Shown here: one piece after another, positions 3,641-45,541 of the stretch | Position numbering within the stretch: position 1 is the stretch's first letter | Layout: each line of letters opens with the position of its first letter | NCBI RefSeq assembly: GCF_000026545.1 | Contig: NC_011601.1 | Origin: Escherichia coli O127:H6 str. E2348/69 | GTDB lineage: Bacteria; Pseudomonadota; Gammaproteobacteria; Enterobacterales; Enterobacteriaceae | Direction: 5' to 3' (one strand) | DNA length: 64,000 bases | Notes under the pieces: generated by a model | The model's input: the letters and a program-made list of their open reading frames with translations, nothing else | What the model was told of the DNA's origin: nothing | The model's database searches: none | Made by a program: the position numbers and the translations under genes

Positions 3641-3643
3641 GTT

Positions 3644-22545: not shown

Positions 22546-22557
22546 CACGCTACCGCC
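22546..22557 (-). promoter_or_regulatory. ops element (RfaH recruitment site) in the waaQ leader
   Basis: Plus strand reads CACGCTACCGCC, so the non-template strand of the waaQ transcript reads GGCGGTAGCGTG, ~50 nt upstream of the waaQ start. Confidence 0.8.
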
Positions 22558-22909
22558 CCAGGCTCAACAGCTACCTGAATACTGATACCGCACTGATATT
22601 GACGCGCTAGTGTATCACTTCTTTCGCGGCAATCCGACCCGAATGATTTTTAAGCACATTGTTGATTTTCAATAAAGAAATCAATCAAATAAAATCATTA
22701 GCAACCATATTCTTTTTACTGTTGCTCTGCGATTCCTTCCTGCACGTACTGCAGAAATCAATGAATCGCATAAAAATACAAAAAAAGTATAGATGTTCAG
22801 CAAGAATTGGCGGGTAAATTGCTATTTAAGTCAAAAACGGGAAAAGTAATGGTAAAGCCACAGCTAAATACATAGAATCCCCAGCACATCCATAAGTCAG
22901 CTATTTACT

Positions 22910-29503: not shown

Positions 29504-30463
29504 TTACCATACCACCAGCATTCGCTTTACACCCTCCCTCGCCTGTTTAAAACCCTCATCCTCAGGATTGATTTGCAATAACCAGTTTATTCTTCCCTGC
29601 AAAGCATAAAGATACGCCGTTGCCTGTGCATGAAGATCGCCAGAAGAATCAAGCTCACCACGACGACTAAGATGCGAAATGACGCCATATTTTTGGCACA
29701 AATGTACTTCCTGACGCAGTGCCCTCCGCACTTCGCGGGCGAGTTGTGGTTTGTGATTAACAACAATCCCGGTTACTTGCTGGCGCTTACAGGCCGCGAC
29801 CAGGCAGCTTTTGCGTTGATTGAGGTTCAGGCCCAGCTCCGCTAACAATCCGCACACTTTATTTTTAACCAGGCGGGCATTGAAGTGACCGGAAAAGGTC
29901 ATGTCATCGCAGTAGCGGGTGTAGGTAATTCCCCGAGCCTGACACCATTCCCCTATGCGCTCATCAAAACGGCACATCACAAGATTGGAAATGGCAGGCG
30001 AAGTTGGTGCCCCCTGCGGTAACGCGTCGTTATAGCAACAAAGCCAGGTCAGCATGCTTACCACATTGCGTGGCAACTGGGCCTGGCGAAACACACGCCA
30101 GACCTGTAACCAGCTAATGCTATCGAAAAAGTTTTCGATATCGAGTTTCAGGATCTGCGGCTGTTGGCAGTGAGGCTGCGCATTGCTGACGATTGGGCAA
30201 CCCGGCCGGTAGGCGGTAGCAAAAGGGGAAAGAGGGAATTGTGAAAGGACGTTCTTAAGAATGTTGCGCTGTACGGTTTTGAGCAAGTAATTAGGGGCTA
30301 ACACCACCCGCTGACCGCCGTGACGCTTAGAAAGAATAATCCGTCGGTAATGGCGTGCGGCATGATTACTGAGCGCATACAGCCGCTGTATTTCTTTATC
30401 GGCGCTCCAGCCCGGCGAGCCGAACAAATCAAGCGCCAGAAGGGTTATCCGGGTAGCATCCAT
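29504..30463 (-). CDS. Retron-type reverse transcriptase
   Basis: 319 aa from ATG (ORF track gives 323 aa from an upstream GTG); RT motifs YCDDMTFSG (YxDD) and QGAPTSPAISNL; retron-typical VTG motif (QVTGIVVN); between slmA and pyrE, where K-12 has only a short intergenic palindrome. Confidence 0.85.
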   Translation of the reverse strand: MDATRITLLALDLFGSPGWSADKEIQRLYALSNHAARHYRRIILSKRHGGQRVVLAPNYLLKTVQRNILKNVLSQFPLSPFATAYRPGCPIVSNAQPHCQQPQILKLDIENFFDSISWLQVWRVFRQAQLPRNVVSMLTWLCCYNDALPQGAPTSPAISNLVMCRFDERIGEWCQARGITYTRYCDDMTFSGHFNARLVKNKVCGLLAELGLNLNQRKSCLVAACKRQQVTGIVVNHKPQLAREVRRALRQEVHLCQKYGVISHLSRRGELDSSGDLHAQATAYLYALQGRINWLLQINPEDEGFKQAREGVKRMLVVW

Positions 30464-30469
30464 TCCACT

Positions 30470-30755
30470 CTCCACATCACGGCGACCAAAAGAGGCACCA
30501 ACAGCGGCAATACCCTCAAACTATCCCGAAGGCGCGTAACTGTACTGAGCGCGTCAGCGCGACGTACGCGAAGCGTACTTAAGTACAATGGAGCGACTTT
30601 GGGTATCTGGACAAACTACTGGCGTTAAGTCGGCGACTCGCCGACCCTCCCGGCACAAAAGGCCGGAAACGCTATTGCCACTGCTGGCGAAAGCAGATTA
30701 ACACGATATCTTAAACCGCATCACGCTGCGCACAGTAAAAACCTGCGCAGCGCAT
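30470..30755 (-). ncRNA. Putative retron msr/msd template RNA (boundaries approximate)
   Basis: ~290 bp non-coding region directly upstream of the RT on the same strand, dense in perfect hairpins/palindromes (GTACGCGAAGCGTAC, GTCGGCGACTCGCCGAC, CGCTGCGCA...TGCGCAGCG). Confidence 0.5.
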
Positions 30756-30759
30756 ATTT

Positions 30760-32309: not shown

Positions 32310-33173
32310 ATGATCCGCAGTATGACCGCCTACGCCCGGCGTGAAATCAAGGGTGAATGGGGGAGCGCAACCTGGGAAATGCGCTCGGTAAACCAGCGTT
32401 ATCTGGAAACTTACTTTCGTCTGCCGGAGCAGTTCCGTAGCCTTGAACCTGTCGTTCGTGAGCGTATTCGTTCTCGCCTGACGCGCGGTAAAGTGGAATG
32501 TACCCTGCGCTATGAGCCCGATGTCAGCGCGCAAGGTGAGCTGATCCTCAACGAAAAACTGGCTAAACAGCTGGTAACTGCCGCGAACTGGGTAAAAATG
32601 CAGAGTGACGAAGGGGAAATCAACCCGGTTGATATTCTCCGCTGGCCAGGCGTGATGGCGGCCCAGGAACAGGATCTCGACGCGATTGCCGCTGAAATTC
32701 TCGCGGCGCTGGATGGTACGCTGGACGACTTTATCATCGCGCGCGAAACCGAAGGTCAGGCGCTGAAAGCATTGATCGAGCAGCGTCTGGAAGGCGTGAC
32801 CGCCGAAGTGGTCAAAGTCCGCGCCCACATGCCGGAAATCCTGCAATGGCAGCGTGAGCGTCTGGTGGCTAAGCTGGAAGACGCCCAGGTGCAACTGGAA
32901 AACAACCGTCTGGAGCAGGAGTTGGTTCTGCTGGCACAACGAATTGACGTTGCCGAAGAGTTGGACCGCCTCGAAGCGCATGTTAAAGAGACCTACAACA
33001 TTCTGAAGAAAAAAGAAGCCGTTGGTCGTCGTCTGGACTTTATGATGCAGGAGTTCAACCGCGAGTCGAACACCCTGGCCTCGAAGTCTATCAATGCCGA
33101 AGTGACTAACTCCGCCATTGAGCTGAAAGTGTTGATCGAGCAGATGCGCGAGCAGATTCAGAATATTGAATGA
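32310..33173 (+). CDS. yicC: YicC family stress-induced protein
   Basis: 287-aa ORF; synteny with rph. Confidence 0.9.
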   Translation: MIRSMTAYARREIKGEWGSATWEMRSVNQRYLETYFRLPEQFRSLEPVVRERIRSRLTRGKVECTLRYEPDVSAQGELILNEKLAKQLVTAANWVKMQSDEGEINPVDILRWPGVMAAQEQDLDAIAAEILAALDGTLDDFIIARETEGQALKALIEQRLEGVTAEVVKVRAHMPEILQWQRERLVAKLEDAQVQLENNRLEQELVLLAQRIDVAEELDRLEAHVKETYNILKKKEAVGRRLDFMMQEFNRESNTLASKSINAEVTNSAIELKVLIEQMREQIQNIE

Positions 33174-33212
33174 TTTTGCATGCTGTCGCATGAAATTGCA
33201 AAAATCCATCAT

Positions 33213-33237
33213 AGCCCGCATTTTGCGGGCTTTTTTA
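33213..33237 (+). terminator. Intrinsic terminator of yicC
   Basis: Hairpin AGCCCGC-ATTTT-GCGGGCT followed by a T-run, 40 nt past the yicC stop. Confidence 0.65.
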
Positions 33238-33281
33238 TTTTCATACTGTCGCATATGATTGCATAGCATCGCGCAAAACAT

Positions 33282-33300
33282 TTGTACCCAAGACTGTACC
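33282..33300. repeat. attL core (left copy of the 19-bp direct repeat)
   Basis: TTGTACCCAAGACTGTACC, identical to 44406..44424; 61 bp upstream of the integrase start. Confidence 0.75.
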
Positions 33301-33360
33301 TTTAATAATTTATCCAATTCATTTTGGGTACAAAATGATAGTCAATATTCAGGTGAAACT

Positions 33361-34620
33361 ATGGCAAAGCTGACAGATATCCAAATCAAGTCATGGATTA
33401 AGGCAGGAGAACGCTTCGAGGGGCGCTCTGACGGCAACGGGCTATACCTTCGCTATCGAGTGGGGGATAAAGTGCCTGTATGGCGTTTTCGATATCAGTT
33501 CGCTGGGAAATCACGGGTAATGCTTATTGGATCTTATAGCGAAATATCCCTTTCCAAAGCACGGGAAATAGCCAAGGAATTATCCGCACGTGTAGCCCTG
33601 GGCTTCGATGTCGCCGGGGAAAAGAAAGCGCGAAAAGCGGCTGCTATAGAAAAGATGGAGCGGGAGAAAAACGCGCTTCGCGTGTCAGAGCTAGCAACCG
33701 AGTATTTCGAACGGCAGATTTTGGGACGCTGGAAACATCCCGATCTTCTGCGCCGGAGAATCGATAAGGATATCAACCCACATATTGGCAACATGAAGAT
33801 AGAGGACGTAAAACCCCGTCATATTGATGCGATGCTACAGAGCGTTGTTGATCGTGGCGCTCCAACCGTAGCTAATGACGTTCTGCGCTGGACTAAACGC
33901 ATATTCGATTATGCTATCAAGCGTCATGCACTGGAATTAAACCCAGCTGGAGCATTTGATCTGTCAGACGCTGGCGGGCAGGAAAGTAGCCGTATGCGCT
34001 GGCTGACCCGTGAAGAACTTATACGTTTTTTCCAAGCTATGCGCACTGCAAAAGGATTCAGCCGCGAGAACGAGCTGACCATGAAGCTAATCCTCTGCCT
34101 GTGTTGTCGCAAAATGGAGCTGTGCGGTGCTCAGTGGGATGAATTCGACCTTGATGAAGCAGTGTGGCATCTACCAGCAGAACGCGTTAAAAACGGCGAC
34201 GCTATTGATATACCACTACCTCCACCTGCGGTTGGTTGGTTGAGAGAGCTTCGCACTATCGCGGGCAGTGGGAGTAAATGGGTTCTCCCCGCGCGGAAGA
34301 TGCAACACCGCATGATTCCCCACATTCAGGAAAGCACACTCCCAGTGGCGCTGGCAAAAGTACGCCGCGAAATGCCAGAAGTACCAAACTTCACAATTCA
34401 CGATTTCAGGCGTACCGCCCGCACCCATTTAGCGGCGTTGGGTGTCGATCCCGTAGTCGCAGAACGTTGCCTGAATCACCGCATTAAAGGCGTTGAGGGT
34501 ATCTACAACCGCCACCAGTACTTTGAAGAACGACGGGCAGCCCTGGAACTGTGGGCGGGGCTTCTGGTTTCGCTTGAACGAGGGGAAAACTACAATGTTA
34601 TTCCTTTATCTAAAATATAA
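33361..34620 (+). CDS. int: Tyrosine-type site-specific integrase (P4-like)
   Basis: ORF 33259..34620 trimmed to MAKLTDIQIKSW (419 aa); catalytic region HDFRRTARTHL and C-terminal Tyr region (GIYNRHQY). Confidence 0.9.
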   Translation: MAKLTDIQIKSWIKAGERFEGRSDGNGLYLRYRVGDKVPVWRFRYQFAGKSRVMLIGSYSEISLSKAREIAKELSARVALGFDVAGEKKARKAAAIEKMEREKNALRVSELATEYFERQILGRWKHPDLLRRRIDKDINPHIGNMKIEDVKPRHIDAMLQSVVDRGAPTVANDVLRWTKRIFDYAIKRHALELNPAGAFDLSDAGGQESSRMRWLTREELIRFFQAMRTAKGFSRENELTMKLILCLCCRKMELCGAQWDEFDLDEAVWHLPAERVKNGDAIDIPLPPPAVGWLRELRTIAGSGSKWVLPARKMQHRMIPHIQESTLPVALAKVRREMPEVPNFTIHDFRRTARTHLAALGVDPVVAERCLNHRIKGVEGIYNRHQYFEERRAALELWAGLLVSLERGENYNVIPLSKI

Positions 34621-34636
34621 AAGTTTTGTTTGAAGG

Positions 34637-34739
34637 TATTCACCCTATTCACCTTTTTAATTAACTTCATGATTTTAAATAATAAAAAAGGGTGAATACT
34701 TACAGTAAAACTAATCACCTTAGTATTCACCTGTTCACC
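34637..34739. repeat. Cluster of five TATTCACC/TGTTCACC 8-mers (putative recombinase arm-type or regulator sites)
   Basis: TATTCACC at 34637, 34646 and 34724; TGTTCACC at 34732; inverted copy GGTGAATA at 34691; directly downstream of int. Confidence 0.5.
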
Positions 34740-34817
34740 TTCTAAAGCTGCTGTGGCTGCTCCCCTTGCCCGAAAACACGCCAGCCACCAGCGTTAAAAA
34801 AAACTACAAAAATCATC

Positions 34818-34839
34818 ATCGTACAGATCTGTACGATGA
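34818..34839. promoter_or_regulatory. Perfect 22-bp palindrome, putative operator
   Basis: CATCGTACAGATCTGTACGATG in the non-coding region between int and the cargo operon. Confidence 0.4.
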
Positions 34840-35123
34840 CGCCAGCACTCACCCTACAAAACAACCTAACTTATTGATTTCAAAAGTAGAGAAAATCTGC
34901 TTTATGCCACTAGCTCGCACCCGTCCCCAAAAAGAAAAAGCCCGCGCTGGAGACGCACGGGCTTTTGGGTACCGATAACCATGTTTGGAATCAACTCATT
35001 GAGTTCTGACCTCAATTTGCATGTTATCACAAGAAAAACACATTGTAATAATTGCAACAACGAATATCATCATTGCATATAATGAAACATAAATATCCGA
35101 TAGAACATACTGAGGTCTGACCG

Positions 35124-35675
35124 ATGCAAGATATTACAAACATCGCAGTGACTGGCGAAGATGGCGTGGTGACGTATGCCGACGGCAGTAAAGAGGAGTT
35201 CCAGTGCAGCGGAACCGTTGCGACCATCATTGCAAGTCTTGCAACGACACTCGAGAAAGAACGCAAAATGCGCATCGCCACCGGCGACCGCCTGCGCCGC
35301 ATGTACACCCGCGACAGTGATATGATTTCCCGCGGTTTGAATGGCACGTCTGCTACTTCCACGGCACCGACAGCAATGAATGCTGAGTTCATGCGTCTGG
35401 TACGTGCCGTAGCGCCGAAATACGATTCAGCACTGCCCGACGCCGACCCGCGCATCGTTGCGCTCGATGTGCTGCGCTACGCCCCTGCTGAGGCGTTCAG
35501 CGCCGTACACCCTACCCCAATGTCAGAAATCCAGCTGGATCAGGCTATCGATATACTCGAGCAGGTTGGCGACTACATGAAAGCAAACAATATCGCTCCG
35601 AAAATAATTTCTACAGGAGACGCAATCCGCAGCATCAATGCTGACAACGCCACCTTCTGGGGCAAAAAACACTAA
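35124..35675 (+). CDS. Hypothetical protein (island cargo, operon gene 1)
   Basis: 183-aa ORF with no recognised domain; first of four co-directional, tightly spaced ORFs. Confidence 0.6.
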   Translation: MQDITNIAVTGEDGVVTYADGSKEEFQCSGTVATIIASLATTLEKERKMRIATGDRLRRMYTRDSDMISRGLNGTSATSTAPTAMNAEFMRLVRAVAPKYDSALPDADPRIVALDVLRYAPAEAFSAVHPTPMSEIQLDQAIDILEQVGDYMKANNIAPKIISTGDAIRSINADNATFWGKKH

Positions 35676-35688
35676 AGAGATATGAAGC

Positions 35689-35877
35689 ATGTCTATCTAT
35701 GACCCGAAATTAGCCGCAGGCAACCCACAGCGCGCCCACCGCCCAATGCTGACCCGTCAGGATCTTGAAACGGCAAAGGCACGCAATAACTTCGATCGCC
35801 AGAGTCGCAACCTGCAGCAACTCAACGAATCAAATGCACGGTTCTGGAGTGAACAGAATGAGAAAGCCAAACGTTAA
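35689..35877 (+). CDS. Hypothetical small protein (operon gene 2)
   Basis: 62-aa ORF 14 bp after gene 1. Confidence 0.45.
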   Translation: MSIYDPKLAAGNPQRAHRPMLTRQDLETAKARNNFDRQSRNLQQLNESNARFWSEQNEKAKR

Positions 35878-36034
35878 GCCGGTCCTGCTGTCCGCCGAGC
35901 AGATGCAGGCCATACGCAACATTCAGGAACGTGAACGCCAGCGCTCCAATCTCGGCGTCGCTCCCACCGTTCACCAGATTGCCCGCGGCCTCATGGCTAA
36001 GGCTCTGGCCTCACTGGCAAGCGAGGGCGCGTAA
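35858..36034 (+). CDS. Hypothetical small protein (operon gene 3; start uncertain)
   Basis: ORF track gives 35765..36034; trimmed to ATG 35858, which has GGAG 9 nt upstream; stop overlaps the next start (TAATG). Confidence 0.35.
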   Translation: MRKPNVKPVLLSAEQMQAIRNIQERERQRSNLGVAPTVHQIARGLMAKALASLASEGA

Positions 36035-36765
36035 TGGGCGCCATTCACCAGATATATGAGCAGGAAATGTTCTATAACTGGATAGGCGATGGTAAACGAT
36101 GTGTAGCATTCCACGAAGCGGGCCATGCAGTAGCCGCATGGCTTATTCGCTTAGATATGCAGGTTATCGCCATTATGGATGAATCCGGCTACGTTGCTGG
36201 CGAACATGTACATGAAGCCCAGTGTTTGGGCGTTGTTAAACACGGCATAATCCACAGCCACGATCTCAGGCGTTTGCGGGAGAGTAAATCTGGTGTAGTT
36301 GGGCACGATGGCAAAGTTATCCCTTTCATACGCTACTACGCGGAAGGTATAAAGCGCGATGCAACAAAGGCCGCTTTTGTAGCCCTCGCTGGACCAGTAA
36401 GCGAAGCCATTTACGAAAATAACGAAATTTTCAATATAAAGTATTCACTCCCTCACCGCTATGACATGGCTAACGTAAATGACATGCTCGATTTAATATG
36501 TGCCACGGATAAGCGAATTAACAGGAAGTTAATGCTTTCTAAACTTGTTGAAAAGACCAAATTCCTCATGACTCAATACTGGCCGGAAGTAGGAAAAATA
36601 GCGCATTTGCTTGAGCGGGATAACATTGTTAATGGCCGCGATGTTAGCTCGCTAATCGGCCTCAACGTCATTGACCGGGCAACGCCATTTTTGGTATCTG
36701 ACTTGAGCAGTACATTTGCTCATCTCCCGTACTCGTCCCTGCCTCCGAATGAATTAGCAACTTGA
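36034..36765 (+). CDS. FtsH-like (M41-type) zinc metallopeptidase-domain protein lacking ATPase and membrane modules
   Basis: 243 aa; HEAGH zinc-binding motif (AFHEAGHAVAAW) and downstream LAGPVSEAIY segment resembling the FtsH protease domain; no Walker motifs. Confidence 0.65.
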   Translation: MGAIHQIYEQEMFYNWIGDGKRCVAFHEAGHAVAAWLIRLDMQVIAIMDESGYVAGEHVHEAQCLGVVKHGIIHSHDLRRLRESKSGVVGHDGKVIPFIRYYAEGIKRDATKAAFVALAGPVSEAIYENNEIFNIKYSLPHRYDMANVNDMLDLICATDKRINRKLMLSKLVEKTKFLMTQYWPEVGKIAHLLERDNIVNGRDVSSLIGLNVIDRATPFLVSDLSSTFAHLPYSSLPPNELAT

Positions 36766-36776
36766 AGACAGTAAAG

Positions 36777-36803
36777 TAGCCATGCATTTAACACGCATGG
36801 CTA
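36777..36803. terminator. Hairpin between convergent cargo operons (putative bidirectional terminator)
   Basis: 9-bp perfect stem TAGCCATGC / GCATGGCTA with a 9-nt loop, between the stops at 36765 (+) and 36813 (-). Confidence 0.45.
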
Positions 36804-36812
36804 TGTGAACAT

Positions 36813-38036
36813 TTAAGAATTAGAGCGCTTAGGCGATCGCGTAAATTGCACTAAAGCCCCTTTATGATCGTTAGCCTGCACATCACGATGCTCAACCAAC
36901 ATAGATTTTAATTTTGCCAGATGCACAACAGCAGCCTTCTTGCCAGTCAGGTACCCCTCGGGCAAACCAGCAATCATTTCCACATCAATAGCAGATAAAC
37001 CTGCGAATGCAGCAAGCCGTTCAACTGAAATGATTCCAGACGATGCCAGCAATTCAATAGTACGTTTCAACAAACGTGGTTTTTCAGGCTCACGATAATC
37101 ATCTCCCGGCTCTGATTTCGCTCCCCAACGTGCTGAACGACGCTTATAAAGATTTTGTTTCTCTTCTTCCGTAATAATATGCAGCACATGTAAACGCATG
37201 ATACTTGCCGCAACGGAAATACCATAGCGTTGTTTAATTAAAAGCAAGCTATCTAATGTTACCGGGGTCCTAATTTCTTCGGCAAATGTCTCAGCAGGAA
37301 GCAGCAGTGCTCCCGCAAATTTATGAGCCTGACTTTCCTTCAGCTTATAACGTTCGGCTTCGAGTTCGTTGCCAACATAGCGGTGAAGGATCAGATGACC
37401 AATTTCGTGAGCAAGGTCAAATCTGCTACGAAAAGCATTACCTTTATCTGAAGAGAGGAGAACAAAAGGAACACCTAAAGTCTCACTCCAGGCAGAAAGC
37501 CCTTCAATCTGCGCAACGCCTGTTTCTTCTCTAATAACGATAATACCATTACTCTCTGCGGCTAAAGCAAGATCCGGTATTTCCTTTGTACCAAGATTCC
37601 AAAGAGCACGGCACTCATTAGCAGCGTCTTCAATATCTGCATCACTAATTTCATCAATGTTTGTAAAGCTACGACGCGGTAGTTTTAGCTCCGGCAGATC
37701 TACAAACTCAGTCAGCTTAGTAACTAACTCATTAGCCCAATGGATTCGAGTTTCTAACATTGCTCGTGCAGCTACATGAGCTGATGCATTGCTTCTGAAC
37801 AGAGGCTTTGACATCCCCTTCAACAGAGGGCGCGTAAACCATTCAGGTGTAACATTTACGACAGTGGCCAGACGTTCTAAAGCCTCAGACTCTGGAGCCT
37901 GTTGACCGGAACGCCATTTGCTAATGGTTGCTGGTGATACACCCACCATAGTAGCTAATTGAGTTTGTGATAGCCGCCGGGCGGCTAGTACCTGTGCTAA
38001 CCTGCCCGGTTGAAATTCGGCGACGCCTCGGCTCAT
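36813..38036 (-). CDS. Fused HTH-XRE / ImmA-IrrE-type (M78-like) zinc metallopeptidase protein
   Basis: 407 aa; N-terminal XRE helix-turn-helix (LSQTQLATMVGVSPATISKWRSG); central HExxH motif (LAHEIGHLILH); start overlaps the upstream gene stop by 4 bp. Confidence 0.8.
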   Translation of the reverse strand: MSRGVAEFQPGRLAQVLAARRLSQTQLATMVGVSPATISKWRSGQQAPESEALERLATVVNVTPEWFTRPLLKGMSKPLFRSNASAHVAARAMLETRIHWANELVTKLTEFVDLPELKLPRRSFTNIDEISDADIEDAANECRALWNLGTKEIPDLALAAESNGIIVIREETGVAQIEGLSAWSETLGVPFVLLSSDKGNAFRSRFDLAHEIGHLILHRYVGNELEAERYKLKESQAHKFAGALLLPAETFAEEIRTPVTLDSLLLIKQRYGISVAASIMRLHVLHIITEEEKQNLYKRRSARWGAKSEPGDDYREPEKPRLLKRTIELLASSGIISVERLAAFAGLSAIDVEMIAGLPEGYLTGKKAAVVHLAKLKSMLVEHRDVQANDHKGALVQFTRSPKRSNS

Positions 38037-38680
38037 ACATTATCTTCCTCGGTTCCATCTTTTCTGATAATGCCCCTTTTGAGCCCAGGGAATGCATTAT
38101 CTTCTTGGGACGGAACTACATCATATCGGGTTAAAAAAAGTTCAAGTGGCTCATGAAAAACCCAGCGCTTCCCATCAGAACTTGGTACAACAAGCTCTAT
38201 AGACATCGGAGCTTCAGGCTGAATCTGCAACGAACCGGAAAAACGGCATACTACGAACAGTGTAGCTTTTGGCACATCAGAACCATCGGAGAATAAATCC
38301 GGTTGCACCATTTTTTCCACAAACACGTTCTCAGAAATGAGTTCTTGCTTACGTTTGCTACGGAATAATCTCTTCCACTGGTTATCATTGTAGCTTTCAC
38401 GAACAATCGTGAATATACCACTATGGCCTTCTACAATACGGTTACCACGCAGCTTTCCAGGATTACAACCGTTGGCCTCAAACACCTCATAAATAGTTTC
38501 ATTCAGGTTTAAATGACGATCATAACCAAGCGCGGTCGATCTGTGATCTAGCTTCTTCTTTTGAGCATAATCGTAAGAACGCTTTGATGCCGCGTAAATC
38601 GCGTCAGAAAGGGCCATGAAGAGTTGTTTTGAAACATTCTGAACGATGAGATCTGCCACTTTGGATTTTTTCACGACCAT
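38033..38680 (-). CDS. Hypothetical protein, co-operonic with the HTH-peptidase gene
   Basis: 215-aa ORF; AGGAA just upstream of the ATG; no recognised domain. Confidence 0.65.
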   Translation of the reverse strand: MVVKKSKVADLIVQNVSKQLFMALSDAIYAASKRSYDYAQKKKLDHRSTALGYDRHLNLNETIYEVFEANGCNPGKLRGNRIVEGHSGIFTIVRESYNDNQWKRLFRSKRKQELISENVFVEKMVQPDLFSDGSDVPKATLFVVCRFSGSLQIQPEAPMSIELVVPSSDGKRWVFHEPLELFLTRYDVVPSQEDNAFPGLKRGIIRKDGTEEDNV

Positions 38681-39209
38681 TTCCTATCACTGTCACTGAT
38701 AGCCGTGATTTTATATCAGTATTTTTTCGTGTGTCCATAACGCAATCAATTATTTTTTCCTTTGTCAGCAAGAATTATATAAAAAGCACTATCATGACAG
38801 GATTTGGGCCACTAACCTTTCACAGACTCTTGAAGTCCTAGAAAAAAGCAATGGCACAAGGTGTCCTTGCCGGGAGAAAAATCATCTGGCTACCAGCAAC
38901 CTTATAGATTCCAGATCAACGTAATATCAAAGTAAAACGTCCATTTCCGGTACCATATTTGGTCATTACGACGGGGGAAACTTATACCCACTGCTGCCCC
39001 ATCGTCAGCGCCGACAGGGACCTATGCCGCAAGGTATAAGGCAAAATTGGCATTTTCGCTATTCCCCCTGCCCGTATTTTTTGGCTTACTGGAATTTCTC
39101 TATCTAACACAATGAACTTGAGGCTATTCCGACAGGGAGAAAAGCGATCTACGCCTGACCGCCTGCCTCAGCAATCATCCAGGCAAGTACGTGTGTAAGG
39201 CTAACGCGA

Positions 39210-39890
39210 ATGAGTGATTTTTATTCCCCTCTACCAAGCTATGATCTTGTCCGGGCAGCGGAGATGCTGACTGATAAGGGGGCAAATTGTACCGGTAACG
39301 ATTTATTGGAACTATGGAACCAAGGCGTTATCGAGTTGTGTTTTTCTCTGCCGGACTACATTGCTTGTGAAGATGTTAATTTTCCCGGGCATGGTCACAG
39401 CATTTTGTTATCCGTGGATCCGATTAGCTTCAACCTTTTCTGGCTAAATGTTGATTACCCACCGAACTTAAATGCTAACTTTTCTGTGAAAGAATATGGC
39501 TCAGATAGTGAATTCCATGAGCAGTCCCTATGGATACCAACAGAACCGCACTACAACACTCACCATGATAACGGGGAAGGGCTTTGCGAAGCGTTAAGGA
39601 ATACTTATGGCCGGGAAAATTTACGAATACCAGGTGTCGAATTGCAAAAGGTTTGGCGCTTTTTGATCGGTCAGCCTTATGAAAAAAAGCCAACGCCTGA
39701 GCGTATCACCGCTAAGCAATGCCGCTTTATCGTCGCATTACTCAGATCGTATAACCTGACTGACGATGATTTTAAGGGGAGCATTAGGGACCTGAGAATT
39801 AAGATATCTAACCGGATCCCTTCAATCGGTGATCCTGAAATCGATGATAATACCCTTACTGACTGGCTGAAGAAGGGAGGGGTTCGGTAG
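39210..39890 (+). CDS. Hypothetical protein (island cargo, orphan)
   Basis: 226-aa ORF with no recognised domain; divergent from the 38680 operon. Confidence 0.6.
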   Translation: MSDFYSPLPSYDLVRAAEMLTDKGANCTGNDLLELWNQGVIELCFSLPDYIACEDVNFPGHGHSILLSVDPISFNLFWLNVDYPPNLNANFSVKEYGSDSEFHEQSLWIPTEPHYNTHHDNGEGLCEALRNTYGRENLRIPGVELQKVWRFLIGQPYEKKPTPERITAKQCRFIVALLRSYNLTDDDFKGSIRDLRIKISNRIPSIGDPEIDDNTLTDWLKKGGVR

Positions 39891-39992
39891 CTGAGTTTTC
39901 ATAACTCCGATGAGTTTTCAATAACTCCCCCACCCGTAACCACCTACCCCGTAGCCTTGCGATTACCTTCTCACTCAATAGCAGGTAATCGC

Positions 39993-40205
39993 ATGAAATC
40001 GCAAACTTTCACCTTTCCTACCAATGGCAACGCACGAGCCAAACAAGTGGCGCACTATCTTGGAGTGCATATCAGCACCGTATGGCGCTATGCAAAACGT
40101 CCTGATTTTCCAAAACCCCACCAGTTAACCGACGGCGTGACCGTCTTTGACGCCGCAGCTATTCGCCAATGGAACAAGCAAAAAACCGGGGGTGAGAATG
40201 CTTAA
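39993..40205 (+). CDS. alpA: AlpA-family phage transcriptional regulator / excisionase-like protein
   Basis: ORF 39957..40205 trimmed to MKSQTFTF (70 aa); HTH segment AKQVAHYLGVHISTVWRYAKRPDFPKP typical of AlpA/Vis. Confidence 0.7.
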   Translation: MKSQTFTFPTNGNARAKQVAHYLGVHISTVWRYAKRPDFPKPHQLTDGVTVFDAAAIRQWNKQKTGGENA

Positions 40206-40259
40206 CGCGACCGTGAGCACACCCTGCACGACAGCCGTTCGATCTCCATTGTTGGCGGG

Positions 40260-40454
40260 TCAGGCTTTCGGCTCAATACCCAGCCGCTGGAGTTCTTTGC
40301 GCCCCAAGGTTTTCATCCAATTAGCTAAACTCATACCTGCATCTCGTGCGGCGGCCTCGAATTGCTCTTTCAATTCTGGGGCGATCCTCACTTGGAAAGC
40401 TGGTGCCTTTCCCCTGCCTTTGGGCTGTTTATCACGCTGTATTACTGTTGACAT
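40260..40454 (-). CDS. Putative ribbon-helix-helix DNA-binding protein
   Basis: ORF 40260..40547 trimmed to MSTVIQRD (64 aa); beta-strand plus two-helix pattern (FQVRIAPELKEQFEAAARDAGMSLANWM). Confidence 0.45.
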   Translation of the reverse strand: MSTVIQRDKQPKGRGKAPAFQVRIAPELKEQFEAAARDAGMSLANWMKTLGRKELQRLGIEPKA

Positions 40455-40588
40455 GTATGTACCTATTAAACTAAGATTCAAATCAATAGGTACGCACCTT
40501 AACATGTTAAGGTCAGAAAAGACAACGCCCCGTAGTGCTCGCAACACATACGGGGCGTCTAACCAACAACGTTACGGAGACTAACGCT

Positions 40589-40789
40589 ATGGCTAAGCCG
40601 CAGTGTACCCAAACTCACCCCAAATATCAGTATCGTTTTATGGCGCTCGATCGCGCTGACCGCCAGGCAAAACCCTGCAAAATCATTGTTGAGGCCACCA
40701 GCGAGCATGAAGCACGTAAGGTGTTGGCACCTCACTACATCCTGTCACTGTCCGCCGTTTTGCCAGTTCAGGAGGTGAGCCATGTTTAA
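40589..40789 (+). CDS. Hypothetical protein (replication-module operon)
   Basis: ORF 40535..40789 trimmed to ATG 40589, which follows GGAGA; 66 aa. Confidence 0.4.
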   Translation: MAKPQCTQTHPKYQYRFMALDRADRQAKPCKIIVEATSEHEARKVLAPHYILSLSAVLPVQEVSHV

Positions 40790-40976
40790 TGTCATTGTCA
40801 CGGTCACCTATCACTTTTCGGGAACGATCCGTCGTTTTGCTATTCCGGAACGTTTCAATAATCGTGAGCTCGCAGAGAAAGCGGCGCAGCAGTTAACCCA
40901 TACCAGCTATCTGGATGATGGAGTGAGCAGAATTGTGACCCACGCGGCGGAAGTAGTGGAGGTGCGCCATGTATGA
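40782..40976 (+). CDS. Hypothetical protein (replication-module operon)
   Basis: 64-aa ORF whose start overlaps the upstream stop. Confidence 0.4.
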   Translation: MFNVIVTVTYHFSGTIRRFAIPERFNNRELAEKAAQQLTHTSYLDDGVSRIVTHAAEVVEVRHV

Positions 40977-41157
40977 CGCCTACCTGAACCCAAAGGACGC
41001 ACTCCGTCCGATCGCCGTTGCACTCGAGGCTGCGCAGTTTATCGCGCTTGACCCGGAGAATACCGATTTAGCCCATGAGCTGATCGCCTGGGCACTTGAA
41101 ACAGCCGCGCGTGCCTCAGCTGCGCAACGTAACACCCCGGAGGTGGACAATGCTTAA
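40969..41157 (+). CDS. Hypothetical protein (replication-module operon)
   Basis: 62-aa ORF whose start overlaps the upstream stop. Confidence 0.4.
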   Translation: MYDAYLNPKDALRPIAVALEAAQFIALDPENTDLAHELIAWALETAARASAAQRNTPEVDNA

Positions 41158-41458
41158 TCTCAATACATGGAATCTTTTCACGCTGCCGCTGAACGGTGGC
41201 GCAGCTGAGACAGCGCCGGACGATCTGCGTCTGCTGGCCGCTGTGGGGGACGAGGCTCGCAACAACTACCTGCGCGGTGTAAGCGCCATCGGCAATCTGA
41301 TCTTCTGGGCATGTGATAACCCCAACTACACCGACCATCAAGCTGACCTGCCAGCGCTGGGCGCATTCCTGAAACATACCGCTGATATGGCGCGCGCTGC
41401 CGAATTCATGGCAGGACATCTGGACTCACTGGCTGACGGCAAAGAGGGAGGCAAATAA
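41150..41458 (+). CDS. Hypothetical protein (replication-module operon)
   Basis: ORF 41096..41458 trimmed to ATG 41150, which follows GGAGGTGG; 102 aa. Confidence 0.45.
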   Translation: MLNLNTWNLFTLPLNGGAAETAPDDLRLLAAVGDEARNNYLRGVSAIGNLIFWACDNPNYTDHQADLPALGAFLKHTADMARAAEFMAGHLDSLADGKEGGK

Positions 41459-41679
41459 TGCCACGCAAACATCGCTCATCAAGCAACCTGATCAAATTAA
41501 TGGAACGCCAGAAAGGTATAGGGCGCGACGATATCCAGATCGCAGATAATCGCCCTACATTCATGCCGTACGAGCCGAACGGAACCTACGCTACAAACCG
41601 CCATACCCGCCGTATGCTACGCAAGCTCCACGGCATCCAGGCAAAAAGAATGTGTGATCTGAAAGGAGGTCAGAAATGA
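41458..41679 (+). CDS. Hypothetical protein (replication-module operon)
   Basis: 73-aa ORF; stop overlaps the primase start. Confidence 0.45.
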   Translation: MPRKHRSSSNLIKLMERQKGIGRDDIQIADNRPTFMPYEPNGTYATNRHTRRMLRKLHGIQAKRMCDLKGGQK

Positions 41680-44090
41680 GTGGATTCGATCACCTGATGG
41701 AGCAGGGGCAGAAACGCACCCCTGCTCGTTTTACTGCAAATAGCTTTTCTGACCTGTGCAACGCTATTCTATCGCATCGTGTGCAAATTTCCATCACACA
41801 GGAAATGACGGATGAAGAACGGCGCAAAGAAAAGCAGAAACTGTACTGGTTCTCGGCAACTACCCAGCAGGACGGGCAGCGACGTAAACCCGAAAACATG
41901 GCACCGTGTGCTTTCGGTATGCTGGACATTGACGGCAGCACTCCCGGTGCAATCACAGCACTTGTACAGGTGTTCCGGCGATACTCAATGCTGGTGTACC
42001 AGACGGCCAGCTATACGACGGATGAACCTCGTCTGCGTATTGTGTGCGAGCTTTCCCGAGCGGTTGAATCTGACTACCGCCGAGCGACAGGCGAATCCAT
42101 AGAAACTTTGTTGATGCAGGAGGCTGGATTCTCATTCGCCAGCCTGGCGGATAAGAAAGCACGCTGGGAGAACGGCAGCGATTATGTTGTCTTTGACCGC
42201 AATGTATACGGCGCTCAAAGCTATTGCTACTGTCCACACACTGGAGCGAAAGCCCAGAATTACGCGGGCGCGGTAATCGACGTAGGGGCGTTACCGGAAC
42301 CCGCCCAGCCACCAGCGAAGGCGGCCAAAAGCAAGGCAAAGAAACAGCGCCAGCGTGACGCCGCGGCGGTAATAGATGCTGATTTTGACGATCTGAGCGC
42401 CGGACCGGATAACTTCCTTATCGCCGACCTGCGCAGCGCACTCTGGTTTCCCTCCATGCTGCAAAAGGCATGGGACAATGGGGCGTGGATTGAGCAGGGC
42501 TACCGCCTTGCATCTCTCAAAGGCACCGATTTTGAGGACGACGCGCGGCAACTGTGGGTCGAGTGGTCATTGACCGCAGCGGATGGCTGGCCTGATGAAG
42601 AACTTGATGAAGTCGCGGCACAACGCTGGAATGGTCTCGCCCCTGACAAAACCAGCTATAAAGCTATTTTTACTGATGCTCAGGCGCAGGGGTGGAATAA
42701 TCCGGGCAAATGGCGAGCAAAGGCCGCGTACATTGAGAAAATGGCCCCCAGCACACGCGGTGAACTGCTGGCGCAATATTACGGCAACGTATGCCTGAAA
42801 GCTGATGGCAACATGGTTTATCACTATACCGGGCAGGTGTGGGAGCACATCGCCGATGCCGAGTTGCGCCGCCAGCTTTCGCAGATTTTCAAAGATAACG
42901 GGGTCCCCTTTACACCGTACGAGGTTAAAAGCGCGATTGAGGCTATGGGAATGCTTCTGCCTTTAATGGGAGAAACTCCTCGTAACCTGATTGGCTTTGC
43001 CAACGGCGTTTATGATCTCGAGGCGCAGCGATTCCGCCCCCACTGCCCAGACGATTGGCTGACCAGCCATAACGGCGTTGAATACACGCAGCCGGTTAAA
43101 GGCGAAACCCTGAAAAACAATGCCCCAAACTTCTGGCGCTGGCTGCATCATTCCGCAGGGGGCGACTTCGACAAAATGGAGAGAATCAAAGCCGCTCTGT
43201 ATATGGTGCTGGCAAACCGCTACGACTGGCAACTGTTCATCGAGGTTACCGGTGCTGGTGGCAGTGGTAAAAGCGTGTTCACGGGTATTGCACGTATGCT
43301 GACGGGCGAACTACACGCCACCAGCGGCACAATGGAGGACATGGACACCGCGCGCGAACGCGCATCTTTTGTCGGCAAAAGCCTGATCACCCTACCCGAC
43401 CAAGCAACATATACGGGTTCCGGGCCGGGTATCAAGGCTATAACGGGCGGCGACGTGGTAAGGATCGACCCAAAGCACGAAAAGCCATTCCATACGGTTA
43501 TTCGCGCCGTTGTCATCGCAACAAACAACGAACCTATGCGTTTCACCGAACGACAAGGCGGGATATCGCGGCGCCGGGTTATTTTCCCGTTTAACCATGA
43601 AGTGCCGGAGGCGGAACGTGATCCCCATCTGCTCGATAAAATTAAAGCCGAACTGCCGGTAATCGTCCGTGGTCTGCTGATTGACTTCGAACAGCCAGGC
43701 AAAGCCAAATCGCTACTTATCGCGCAGCGTGATTCAGCGGAAGCGCTGCAGGTGAAGAACGATAACGACCCGATGTATGGCTTTTGCTCTTACCTGCTAG
43801 GTTTGCCGAATCCCGAGGGCATGTACATGGGCGATGGGCGCATGGCGCGAGAGCCACGCATCTACCTCTATCATGCTTATCTGGCCTATCTGGAAGCCTA
43901 CGGTTATCAGAGAACCCCCACCCTACCGAAGTTCAGCGGAGATTTACGGGACACGCTCAAAGCCTTTGGTATTACTCTGGACAGTAAAAAGAGTAAAAAG
44001 GGCAAAAGATATAACGTCAATTTGTCTGACAGGGCACAAGAATGGCTGGGAGAAGACGAACTCTCAGCTGTGCCCGACACATTGCAGTAA
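41676..44090 (+). CDS. P4 alpha-like primase-helicase
   Basis: 804 aa; Walker A GAGGSGKS in the C-terminal half (SF3/D5-type helicase); last gene of a translationally coupled operon. Confidence 0.85.
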   Translation: MSGFDHLMEQGQKRTPARFTANSFSDLCNAILSHRVQISITQEMTDEERRKEKQKLYWFSATTQQDGQRRKPENMAPCAFGMLDIDGSTPGAITALVQVFRRYSMLVYQTASYTTDEPRLRIVCELSRAVESDYRRATGESIETLLMQEAGFSFASLADKKARWENGSDYVVFDRNVYGAQSYCYCPHTGAKAQNYAGAVIDVGALPEPAQPPAKAAKSKAKKQRQRDAAAVIDADFDDLSAGPDNFLIADLRSALWFPSMLQKAWDNGAWIEQGYRLASLKGTDFEDDARQLWVEWSLTAADGWPDEELDEVAAQRWNGLAPDKTSYKAIFTDAQAQGWNNPGKWRAKAAYIEKMAPSTRGELLAQYYGNVCLKADGNMVYHYTGQVWEHIADAELRRQLSQIFKDNGVPFTPYEVKSAIEAMGMLLPLMGETPRNLIGFANGVYDLEAQRFRPHCPDDWLTSHNGVEYTQPVKGETLKNNAPNFWRWLHHSAGGDFDKMERIKAALYMVLANRYDWQLFIEVTGAGGSGKSVFTGIARMLTGELHATSGTMEDMDTARERASFVGKSLITLPDQATYTGSGPGIKAITGGDVVRIDPKHEKPFHTVIRAVVIATNNEPMRFTERQGGISRRRVIFPFNHEVPEAERDPHLLDKIKAELPVIVRGLLIDFEQPGKAKSLLIAQRDSAEALQVKNDNDPMYGFCSYLLGLPNPEGMYMGDGRMAREPRIYLYHAYLAYLEAYGYQRTPTLPKFSGDLRDTLKAFGITLDSKKSKKGKRYNVNLSDRAQEWLGEDELSAVPDTLQ

Positions 44091-44108
44091 CTTGTAAAAA
44101 ATCACCAA

Positions 44109-44133
44109 GAACCCCGTAAATCGGGGTTTTTGT
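44109..44133 (+). terminator. Intrinsic terminator after the primase gene
   Basis: Hairpin ACCCCG-TAAAT-CGGGGT followed by TTTTT, 20 nt past the stop. Confidence 0.6.
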
Positions 44134-44150
44134 CTATTTATTAGTCTGAA

Positions 44151-44255
44151 AGGGTGAACAGGTGCGCATACCTTAACAAAGCTGTTCACTCTAATAATTT
44201 TCTTTAATATCAGTACACTACCCGCAATAAGTGAACAGATGGACGGGGTGAACAC
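44151..44255. repeat. Cluster of GTGAACA motifs near the right island end
   Basis: GGTGAACA at 44153 and 44248, GTGAACAG at 44231, inverted copy TGTTCAC at 44183; related to the left-end TGTTCACC/TATTCACC cluster. Confidence 0.45.
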
Positions 44256-44405
44256 TTCACACCTATAGCGCGAAATATTTTAATATTTGCAGTTGAATTG
44301 CAATCCTTGAAAACAGAAACGCGTAGCAAAACGTAGAGTGCTGAAAAAATTTTGTTGGGGAGCAGTTCAAACTGCATGAGCAATTTTCAAGCACTCCTCT
44401 TTGTC

Positions 44406-44424
44406 TTGTACCCAAGACTGTACC
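44406..44424. repeat. attR core (right copy of the 19-bp direct repeat)
   Basis: TTGTACCCAAGACTGTACC, identical to 33282..33300. Confidence 0.75.
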
Positions 44425-44655
44425 CAATAGAAAAAATAGAAAATAAAAACTCAGCAATAGCAGCGATTGGTTACACTACTCAACATTCAGATTCAACTCG
44501 TAACGCCAATTCTTACTTTTCAGCCTTCACAAATGCCGCCCACTCAAACAGAGCGGCATTTTTCTTCCCCGCAACTTCAATTCTGTTTTGCGTGCCTGCT
44601 CCAGATTTTGCGATGTTTTTTTGCCCAGCGCAGTGAGAACGTGAGATACTCACAA

Positions 44656-44671
44656 CTGTATATAAACACAG
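44656..44671 (+). promoter_or_regulatory. LexA (SOS) box in the dinD promoter
   Basis: CTGTATATAAACACAG matches CTGT-N8-ACAG, ~45 bp upstream of dinD. Confidence 0.75.
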
Positions 44672-44716
44672 TTGTAGACTTACTTTCCTTGCAATCGATA
44701 TCACATGGAGTGGGCA

Positions 44717-45541
44717 ATGAACGAACATCATCAACCTTTTGAAGAGATAAAGCTGATTAATGCAAACGGAGCAGAACAATGGTCAGCAAGACAACTTGGG
44801 AAACTACTGGGTTATTCAGAGTATCGTCACTTTATACCTGTATTAACGCGCGCCAAAGAAGCTTGTCTGAATAGTGGTCACACAATTGATGACCATTTCG
44901 AGGAGATCCTCGATATGATCAAAATTGGCTCAAATGCCAAAAGAGCATTAAAAGACATCGTACTCTCCCGCTATGCCTGTTACCTGGTAGTACAAAACGG
45001 CGACCCTGCGAAACCGGTTATTGCGGCAGGGCAAACTTATTTTGCTATCCAGACCCGACGGCAGGAGCTGGCTGACGATGAAGCTTTCAGGCAACTTCGT
45101 GAAGACGAAAAGCGTCTTTTTCTGAGAAATGAGTTGAAAGAACATAACAAACAATTAGTTGAGGCAGCGCAGCAAGCTGGGGTAGCGACAGCTATCGATT
45201 TCGCCATATTTCAGAATCATGGTTACCGGGGGCTGTATGGTGGATTAGATCAGAAAGCCATCCATCAGCGGAAGGGGCTGAAAAAGAGTCAGAAGATCCT
45301 GGATCATATGGGTTCAACAGAACTGGCGGCTAATCTCTTTCGAGCTACCCAAACAGAAGAAAAACTCAAGCGGGATGGCGTGAATTCAAAACAGCAAGCT
45401 AACACCACACACTTTGACGTGGGTCGCAAGGTGAGGCAAACCATTCAGGAACTTGGCGGAACCATGCCTGAGGAGTTGCCGACCCCGCAGGTCAACATCA
45501 AGCAGTTGGAAAACAGTGTAAAAATTACAGAGAAGAAATAG
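44717..45541 (+). CDS. dinD: DNA damage-inducible protein D
   Basis: ORF 44705..45541 trimmed to MNEHHQPFEE (274 aa); LexA box upstream. Confidence 0.85.
   Translation: MNEHHQPFEEIKLINANGAEQWSARQLGKLLGYSEYRHFIPVLTRAKEACLNSGHTIDDHFEEILDMIKIGSNAKRALKDIVLSRYACYLVVQNGDPAKPVIAAGQTYFAIQTRRQELADDEAFRQLREDEKRLFLRNELKEHNKQLVEAAQQAGVATAIDFAIFQNHGYRGLYGGLDQKAIHQRKGLKKSQKILDHMGSTELAANLFRATQTEEKLKRDGVNSKQQANTTHFDVGRKVRQTIQELGGTMPEELPTPQVNIKQLENSVKITEKK

Follow-up and report, generated by a model that had tools for sequence, protein, structure and literature searches.

Why are two divergent genes in a genomic island of Escherichia coli O127:H6 str. E2348/69 separated by more than half a kilobase of DNA without an open reading frame (ORF) of appreciable size? 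The stretch in question, positions 38681-39209 of a 64,000-nt segment of the chromosome (NC_011601.1; here called the window), belongs to an island of about 11 kb that is inserted between yicC and dinD. A preliminary description, made from the letters alone, had placed two divergent promoters between divergent cargo genes and proposed that the gap could hold a small RNA or a regulatory structure, by analogy with the immunity RNAs of P4-like elements. In our reading, to which we give a probability of roughly 0.55, the gap is a composite junction that arose by insertion of cargo between the integrase gene int and the int-alpA RNA leader of an island of the phage-inducible chromosomal island (PICI)/P4-primase type, and it comprises a putative RNA switch as well as filler.

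The gap measures 529 bp and is bounded by the start codons of a minus-strand ORF of 215 amino acids (38033-38680) and a plus-strand ORF of 226 amino acids (39210-39890). As described earlier, the ORF list holds no entry of at least 60 codons in this interval; the largest ORFs within it have 42 amino acids (38982-39110, minus strand) and 36 amino acids (38731-38841, plus strand), and RefSeq annotates no feature there. The gap ranks first among the 56 RefSeq intergenic gaps of the surrounding 50 kb, followed by gaps of 503 bp and 413 bp (the latter between waaA and rfaQ). The equivalent divergent gap is 206 bp long in two sister islands at the same site (L002 and L003) and 271 bp long in a Salmonella island (L011) with the same cassette on its left. 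In the three canonical islands that we opened, the gap between int and the next ORF, which holds the RNA motif, spans only 95-115 bp. Thus, the gap is long both locally and by comparison with homologous islands. Across E. coli generally, divergent genes about 500 bp apart are unexceptional.

Comparison with loci fetched via the flanking genes partitioned the gap into three parts: a cassette-linked part (38681 to about 38780), an orphan part (about 38781 to 39116), and a conserved island leader (39117-39209). The whole 529 bp are present in 7 of 5,426 complete E. coli genomes, and 10 further E. coli genomes match the last ~90 bp only, at 78-79% identity. In every related island, the first rightward ORF is preceded by these last ~90 bp. 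The features of this right-hand part are the following.

39117-39184, plus strand: int-alpA RNA (Rfam RF02996), a three-way junction; score 39.4 bits (E 2.4e-5), gathering score 35.8
39117-39124 with 39165-39172, plus strand: helix P1, 7 of 8 pairs present in the window
39127-39130 with 39135-39138, plus strand: helix P2, 4 of 4 pairs present
39144-39147 with 39159-39162, plus strand: helix P3, 3 of 4 pairs present, one A-C mismatch
39153-39157, plus strand: pentamer GCCUG in the P3 loop, the complement of box 1 and, at 4 of its 5 positions, of box 2
39180-39184, plus strand: box 1, CAGGC, proposed pseudoknot/decoy partner of the P3 loop; corresponds to the "AgGG" conserved at the Rfam model's 3' end
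39190-39194 with 39204-39208, plus strand: hairpin P4 (CGUGU/ACGCG) of the minimum-free-energy fold, ending 1 nt before the ATG
39197-39201, plus strand: box 2, AAGGC, the Shine-Dalgarno sequence, in the P4 loop GUAAGGCUA
39210, plus strand: ATG of the 226-amino-acid ORF

The int-alpA match was found in a covariance-model scan with Rfam release 15. It is full-length (model positions 1-71), and the conserved CUA, GAAAAG and CCGCCUG elements are all present in the window's copy. It is one of two gathering-level Rfam matches in the 64-kb window; the other, an ordinary one, is a JUMPstart RNA (RF01707, 55.2 bits; 22546-22584, minus strand) in the divergent region between waaA and rfaQ. BLAST with the Rfam consensus sequence found matches in 220 E. 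coli genomes. The family is already catalogued, and it is its mechanism that we infer here. The int-alpA family reportedly comes from the screen by Weinberg and colleagues in 2017. The name "int-alpA" is absent from the main text of that paper (Weinberg et al., 2017; PMC5737381), and a later study lists the RNA as a putative small RNA (sRNA) that it did not assay (PMC12370729).

The preliminary description had suggested an analysis of structure and covariation across homologous islands, and this check came out in favor of a structured RNA. A pattern scan of one genome per species gave 63 instances, the window included, from Pseudomonas, Nitrosomonas, Thiomonas, Enterobacterales and several metagenome-assembled genomes. 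In these, 95.5% of the P1, P2 and P3 cells are paired, and the covariation score is 0.586, compared to 0.14 in shuffles (reached in 0 of 500) and at most 0.11 with slid partners. Covariation is strong in P1, where both sides of 7 of the 8 pairs change, and in P2. In many instances (L006, L007, L011, L028, L053, L054, L059), a run of 5-8 U residues resembling a terminator follows directly after a GC-rich P1. The run is missing in the window, in the viral contig L005 and in most Pseudomonas instances. The versions of int-alpA that have it may also act on transcription.

Conservation does not end with the 71-nt Rfam model, but runs up to the start codon. Across the instances, box 1 lies 5-14 nt after P1, and box 2 lies about 20-25 nt after P1, overlapping the Shine-Dalgarno sequence. 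The longest Watson-Crick match between the P3 loop and its own leader averages 5.73 nt, compared to 4.50 ± 0.12 nt for permuted loops (0 of 1000). The 63 instances contain 35 distinct loop heptamers; with one representative for each, the match is 5.34 versus 3.42 nt for box 1 and 4.71 versus 3.84 nt for box 2 (0 of 2000 permutations each). Loops that do not look like an anti-Shine-Dalgarno sequence (UCAACGA, UCAUUAA, AGUCCA) likewise have both boxes. A compensatory change is also seen directly, with GCCUG:CAGGC in the window and L005 and GCCUU:AAGGC in relatives. For hairpin P4, 75% of the cells in the raw alignment A2 are paired, with a covariation score of 0.437 compared to 0.256 in shuffles (0 of 500). 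Its best stem has a mean length of 5.10 compared to 4.55 ± 0.14 in shuffles, and it ends 1-6 nt before the start codon. P1, P2, P4 and the loop/box pairings are supported by covariation, and from them we infer a switch, its direction and its trigger.

We read int-alpA as a putative cis-acting translational switch, that is, as the 5' leader of the first gene of the island's core operon. Several observations argue for a cis-acting leader rather than a free sRNA. The ORF starts about 35-50 nt past CCGCCTG in nearly all instances, and both boxes lie in the same leader. Consensus scans found no terminator-like site in 38400-39500, and no plus-strand promoter with at least 9 of 12 matches in this interval or at least 8 of 12 in 38740-39130; by these scans, the motif has neither the promoter nor the intrinsic terminator of a stand-alone sRNA gene. 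Targets of the P3 loop further down the operon were also considered and rejected, as complementarity there is not in excess of chance (5.97 versus 5.91 for permuted loops).

In the proposed mechanism, the 93 bp of the leader (39117-39209) would fold into the P1-P3 junction followed by P4, which would display the Shine-Dalgarno sequence 1 nt before the ATG. Pairing of the P3 loop with box 1 would form a pseudoknot and leave the Shine-Dalgarno sequence free. Pairing of the same loop with box 2, the Shine-Dalgarno sequence in the P4 loop, would block ribosome binding. The choice of the loop between these two states would gate translation of the first core-operon gene. No constitutive rightward promoter is visible, and activation of the operon would depend on a helper phage. 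The lack of a visible rightward promoter fits with the reported induction of alpA expression by helper phage in E. coli PICIs (PMC11773190). In one IMG/VR island (L004, about 3023-3058), the end of a T-run hairpin that looks like an intrinsic terminator (GGTGGTG...CACCACCTTTTTT) is separated from P1 by only about 16 nt, which leaves no room for a conventional promoter ahead of the motif.

Several points weigh against this reading, two of them by favoring other roles for the RNA. First, the Rfam entry has the type "Gene; sRNA". The motif might accordingly be a free trans-acting sRNA of about 70 nt that acts on other mRNAs or other copies of the leader, its position next to an ORF being incidental or the result of processing. 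Its closing stem and two hairpins match the gross topology of the P1 C4 RNA, which is reportedly processed from a leader, and the covariation of loop and boxes resembles that of immunity specificities. We nevertheless regard a trans-acting sRNA as improbable, given that the window's motif is neither preceded by a promoter nor followed by a terminator in the consensus scans, that the distance to the ORF is fixed in nearly all instances, and that both boxes sit in the leader itself with no extra complementarity elsewhere in the operon.

Second, a U-rich run follows P1 in the Rfam consensus and in many canonical instances. Together with P1, it could mean that the motif mainly serves the 3' end of the int transcript, as a terminator or as a stabilizer in the 3' untranslated region; the window's copy would then be a relic. 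P1 begins about 10 nt past the int stop codon in about 24 loci, and the U-run is lost in the window's copy. However, the motif, boxes, P4 and the distance to the ATG are kept where int lies 0.5-5 kb away or the upstream genes are divergent (the window, L002, L005, L011). Furthermore, the loop/box covariation involves the downstream ribosome-binding site and not int, and many instances, for example those in Pseudomonas, have no U-run. A role as an int 3' element likewise seems improbable to us.

The remaining points concern the evidence for the putative leader itself. Its promoter is not recognizable in the consensus scans. Its folding energy is no better than that of shuffles (z = +1.18), so that the case for it rests on covariation. 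In the window, P3 is weakened by its A-C mismatch, and one of the five loop bases has no match in box 2. The pattern that retrieved the 63 instances fixed the junction and the P3 stem, which biases the set to that subtype and makes the conservation of junction and P3 stem bases a matter of construction, with P3 invariant. Finally, the orphan middle may be under weak constraint; only two sequence versions of it exist.

The cis-acting switch can be compared with known systems. Like other members of RF02996, the window's copy scores above threshold, has the same junction and lies between int and alpA on their strand. It differs from the typical member in lying 4.5 kb from int rather than about 10 nt past the int stop codon, in having no U-run, and in its weakened P3. 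Here, the description of the family is extended past the 71-nt model to the second box, the Shine-Dalgarno hairpin and the start codon, and this extension speaks for a leader acting in cis and against the label of an sRNA. What the analysis adds to the Rfam model and to the main text of Weinberg et al. (2017) is evidence for this architecture of loop, decoy and Shine-Dalgarno sequence in the leader, and for the role of the motif as the boundary of a cargo slot.

The proposed analogy with P4-type immunity RNAs did not hold at the level of family membership. The C4 family of Rfam gave no match in 33000-45000 (E <= 1), in 38600-39300 (E <= 10), or anywhere in the window at the gathering score. 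The C4 RNAs of P1 and P7 and the CI RNA of P4 are embedded in leaders. In each, a loop is complementary to two sites of the transcript, one of which lies at the first gene's ribosome-binding site, and from element to element the loop covaries with its targets. The window's P3 loop is likewise complementary to two sites in its own transcript, one at the ribosome-binding site, and the operon also carries an Icd-like gene, as in the C4/CI setting. The resemblance is functional, and what is similar is the loop-to-ribosome-binding-site logic: both boxes of int-alpA lie downstream rather than flanking the RNA, and there is no similarity in sequence or by covariance model. A comparison can also be made with riboswitches that sequester the Shine-Dalgarno sequence, since the leader has a junction that looks like a sensor fold, a loop like an anti-Shine-Dalgarno sequence, a decoy box and a true Shine-Dalgarno sequence. 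Unlike those of metabolite riboswitches, the genes that int-alpA would regulate are hypervariable, and we know of no ligand or protein partner for the leader.

As a speculative extension, which we consider doubtful, the int-alpA leader could be the immunity or commitment switch of widespread integrase-alpA islands, Gram-negative PICIs among them, and thus a functional analogue of C4/CI that is unrelated to them in sequence. If so, the junction would sense a signal from the host or the helper phage, or would act in trans after processing. The island-specific loop would pick either the decoy box or the ribosome-binding site, and the covarying loop and boxes would set specificity between islands.

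The left-hand part of the gap belongs to a different system. Its features, and the genes to which they belong, are these.

36813-38036, minus strand: rmrA, Rosmer antitoxin, 407 amino acids (PADLOC RmrA PDLC03951, E 3.5e-125)
38033-38680, minus strand: rmrT, the gene in the Rosmer toxin position and left flank of the gap, 215 amino acids (PADLOC RmrT PDLC03937, E 8.1e-16)
38684-38702, minus strand: imperfect palindrome CTATCACTG-T-CACTGATAG (inverted repeat I11), between the -10 element and the rmrT Shine-Dalgarno sequence
38708-38737, minus strand: sigma-70-like promoter of rmrTA, with a -35 element TGGACA (38737-38732), an 18-nt spacer and a -10 element TAAAAT ending at 38708

RmrA combines an XRE helix-turn-helix domain (HTH_3) with a Peptidase_M78 (ImmA/IrrE) domain according to Pfam, and rmrT and rmrA overlap by 4 nt. 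With both PADLOC models and both domains matched, the left flank is by sequence a member of RosmerTA, a group of toxin-antitoxin systems that act in anti-phage defence, and the architecture of helix-turn-helix plus ImmA/IrrE is the one described for RosmerTA systems (PMC10440598). Of this cassette, only the ~100-bp promoter and putative operator fall inside the gap. The first 57-100 bp of the gap recur upstream of rmrT homologues in the Salmonella island, on the chromosome of Serratia, in a prophage of Aeromonas, on a Citrobacter contig and in CP4-57-like E. coli islands. The promoter has 10 of 12 consensus matches, and both of its hexamer positions are also conserved where rmrT sits in other, unrelated contexts. 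Of the two divergent promoters expected earlier, the leftward one was thus found, while no sigma-70-like site is recognizable for the rightward one. The block ATCAGTGACAGTGATAGG upstream of rmrT is invariant in all nine sequences compared, that from Aeromonas included, while the rest of the upstream region diverges. Position and conservation suggest that the palindrome at 38684-38702 is likely an operator through which RmrA, the helix-turn-helix antitoxin, would autoregulate rmrTA.

The rmrTA cassette with its ~100-bp promoter/operator region (36813-38780; loci L010-L018) is itself mobile. Near-identical cassettes, with 80-88% protein identity, are found on the Serratia chromosome, in the Aeromonas prophage (next to recT, dam and int), on the Citrobacter contig (next to IS66 genes) and in the CP4-57-like E. 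coli islands (next to cbtA and cbeA). Rosmer variants also differ between sister islands: the RmrA proteins of the window and L002 are 27% identical, and the proteins in the RmrT position are unrelated.

Between the Rosmer promoter and the leader lies the middle part, in which two intervals can be distinguished.

38781-39116, no strand: orphan spacer of ~336 bp (up to ~380), which accounts for the excess length of the gap
38952-39072, plus strand: possible decayed copy of motif, leader and first codons, 64% identical to 39109-39235 in a colinear local alignment

The spacer was found in the 7 of 5,426 E. coli genomes mentioned above, in one IMG/VR contig (L005/L009), which is about 83-92% identical to the window over the whole gap, and in one identical gut metagenome contig (L083). 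BLASTN found no match to it in the plasmid and phage collections. An exact-word scan detected no further homologue in genome contigs and, among viral and metagenome contigs, returned only L005/L009 and L083, respectively. With no homologues other than these, a covariation test on the spacer is impossible. TBLASTX likewise showed no translated similarity, either to any of the loci that we fetched or to the remainder of the window. With BLASTN (E. coli genomes, plasmids, phages) and TBLASTX both empty, a gene remnant and an insertion sequence or miniature inverted-repeat transposable element were rejected as origins of the spacer.

The preliminary description had reckoned with a small RNA or regulatory structure in the gap. 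Such an element is present, as int-alpA, in the last 93 bp; the ~336 bp that make the gap unusual show no sign of an RNA or other function. In the spacer, Rfam at E <= 10 gave chance snoRNA-like matches only, the fold z-scores are -0.99 on the plus strand and -1.52 on the minus strand, and a custom covariance model (R1), run with filters off over 38681-39116, gave no match. On these results, a second structured RNA was rejected. Pairing over a long range between the spacer and the tail of the motif (inverted repeat I3, 38863-38875 with 39178-39190) was treated as chance; in a hand comparison of the aligned sequences, it drops from 11 of 13 pairs to 9 of 13 in L005. Small-protein genes were rejected as well: the 36-amino-acid ORF is broken by a 10-nt insertion/deletion, and the 42-amino-acid ORF is truncated in L005.

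The spacer could still hold an sRNA, a small protein or a regulatory structure that our searches did not recognize, for example an activator-dependent promoter with a long rightward leader. A rightward promoter has to come from somewhere, and none is recognizable. The window and L005 share identical runs of up to 34-35 nt in the spacer, and a 22-codon hydrophobic ORF (39047-39115), with AAGG 5 nt upstream, is retained in L005. This ORF has 3 non-synonymous versus 2 synonymous codon changes, which is not a pattern of purifying selection, and it was rejected as a gene. The other small ORFs are broken by insertions, deletions or stops in L005, and the fold scores and the Rfam and R1 searches offer no support. 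Sister islands manage without this DNA, with gaps of 206 and 271 bp. Divergence of the spacer from L005 is no lower than that at third codon positions of the neighboring genes (14% for rmrT, 32% for rmrA) and is on the order of the rmrT level. We consider a functional spacer unlikely. It is best explained as non-functional filler between the mobile Rosmer cassette and the conserved island leader, possibly with a decayed leader copy left by recombination.

Whether the filler does contain such a copy bears on its origin. The excess length might be a recombination scar, with 38952-39072 being a decayed duplicate of motif, leader and ORF start that stems from a cassette exchange at the motif boundary. 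The alignment score of this interval is 49, compared to 26.7 ± 4.8 in dinucleotide shuffles (0 of 1000 reach 49) and reached by 2 of 784 real windows. Short pieces are common to both copies (CCGACAGGGA, GTATAAGGCAAA/GTGTAAGGCTAA and ATTCCCC), and the cargo slot between int and motif varies in length between 22 nt and 5.3 kb. However, an nhmmer profile of related leaders finds nothing there while its positive control works, and no match to covariance model R1 appears in the gap when the filters are off. A self-comparison of L005 is not significant (score 35, reached by 47 of 500 shuffles), and 38781-38951 gives no similar signal. We therefore regard the scar as a tentative suggestion, short of even odds. 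It is compatible with the composite junction, as it concerns where the spacer came from.

The composite junction makes sense in light of the layout of such islands, which in the window includes the following genes.

Ending at 34620, plus strand: int, tyrosine integrase
39210-39890, plus strand: first ORF after the motif, 226 amino acids, bordering the gap on the right and occupying the hypervariable slot between motif and alpA
39993-40205, plus strand: alpA, regulator of the Phage_AlpA family (Pfam PF05930, E 5.2e-7)
41676-44090: P4-family primase

In the three canonical islands that we opened, the order is int, the motif about 10 nt past the int stop codon, a hypothetical ORF of about 300 amino acids, and alpA. 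Among loci with long enough flanks, the distance from the end of int to the core of the motif is 22-45 nt in about 24 and 65-1843 nt in about 24 others; the window has 4.5 kb and L002 has 5.3 kb. These distances fall into classes of about 22-45 nt, 65-250 nt, 0.5-1.8 kb and 4.5-5.3 kb (33259-39116; L019-L081). In loci long enough to tell, the motif is followed on its own strand by alpA at a distance of 640-1100 nt, and in the window this distance is about 0.7-0.8 kb. The variable distance to int and the confined distance to alpA indicate that the stretch between int and motif is a variable cargo slot, and that the motif marks the start of the core operon. In the window, int, motif and alpA are all on the plus strand. 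Their order is kept, and the atypical 4.5 kb between int and motif is due to the Rosmer cassette and other cargo inserted between them.

By this layout, the designation of the two flanking genes as divergent cargo is right for the left one, RmrT of the Rosmer cassette. It does not apply to the right one, which occupies the fixed slot between motif and alpA that is found in every such island. The 226-amino-acid protein has no match in Pfam, PHROGs or PADLOC, and has 12 homologous clusters only. The 52 slot ORFs that we compared have a mean column identity of 9%, and only 4 of them match any Pfam family. A subset shares the N-terminal segment KLFKLK.WLTL.EAA..L, and mosaics occur: the L005 protein (3134-3904) follows that of the window for about 155 residues and then continues with a C-terminus like that in L002 (8092-8910).

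Other contents of the island and its surroundings were noted in passing. The 503-bp gap that ranks second in length (34621-35123) lies in the same island, between int and the first cargo gene, and its counterpart in L002 and L003 has 500 bp. On its minus strand, at about 34898-34962, there is a terminator-like GC hairpin with a U-run, which shows up as weak matches to Leu_leader and R1. A plus-strand cargo ORF of 243 amino acids (36034-36765) has a HEAGH motif like that of zinc metalloproteases and a weak match to Peptidase_M41 (E 4.5e-4, below the Pfam cut-off). It follows three small ORFs and is not matched by PADLOC; possibly it represents a further, uncharacterized defence or accessory module of this slot. 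Outside the island, between pyrE and slmA, RefSeq annotates a "reverse transcriptase family protein" (29504-30463, minus strand), which is preceded by an unannotated gap of 296 bp (30464-30759). This region (29504-30759) looks like a retron, whose non-coding RNA would be expected in the 296-bp gap, where Rfam gave no gathering-level match.

The island as a whole resembles Gram-negative PICIs and P4-like satellites in having a tyrosine integrase, AlpA, an Icd-like protein, a P4-family primase and a fixed site between yicC and dinD, and it also carries cargo genes. It differs in that its annotation names no homologues of psu, sid or delta and no packaging or capsid-remodelling genes. Of the components of P4-like satellites (int, psu, delta, sid and alpA, together with epsilon and alpha; PMC8628076), it has int, alpA and the P4-family primase, while psu, sid and delta are not named in the RefSeq annotation, and no dedicated profiles were run for them.

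The practical message for this locus is modest: the unusual length of the gap is mostly orphan filler, and the regulatory RNA within it, confined to the last 93 bp, is already catalogued. For annotation, a simple rule follows, namely that the stretch from int to int-alpA is a cargo slot, here taken by the Rosmer cassette, and that the motif marks the start of the core operon. In PICI-type islands, a conserved structured leader lies at the entry of the alpA operon. With its deep conservation at this position and with covarying loop/box pairings that provide a specific mutational test, the int-alpA leader is an obvious candidate for a part of the control that keeps these islands silent and lets helper phages activate the alpA operon.

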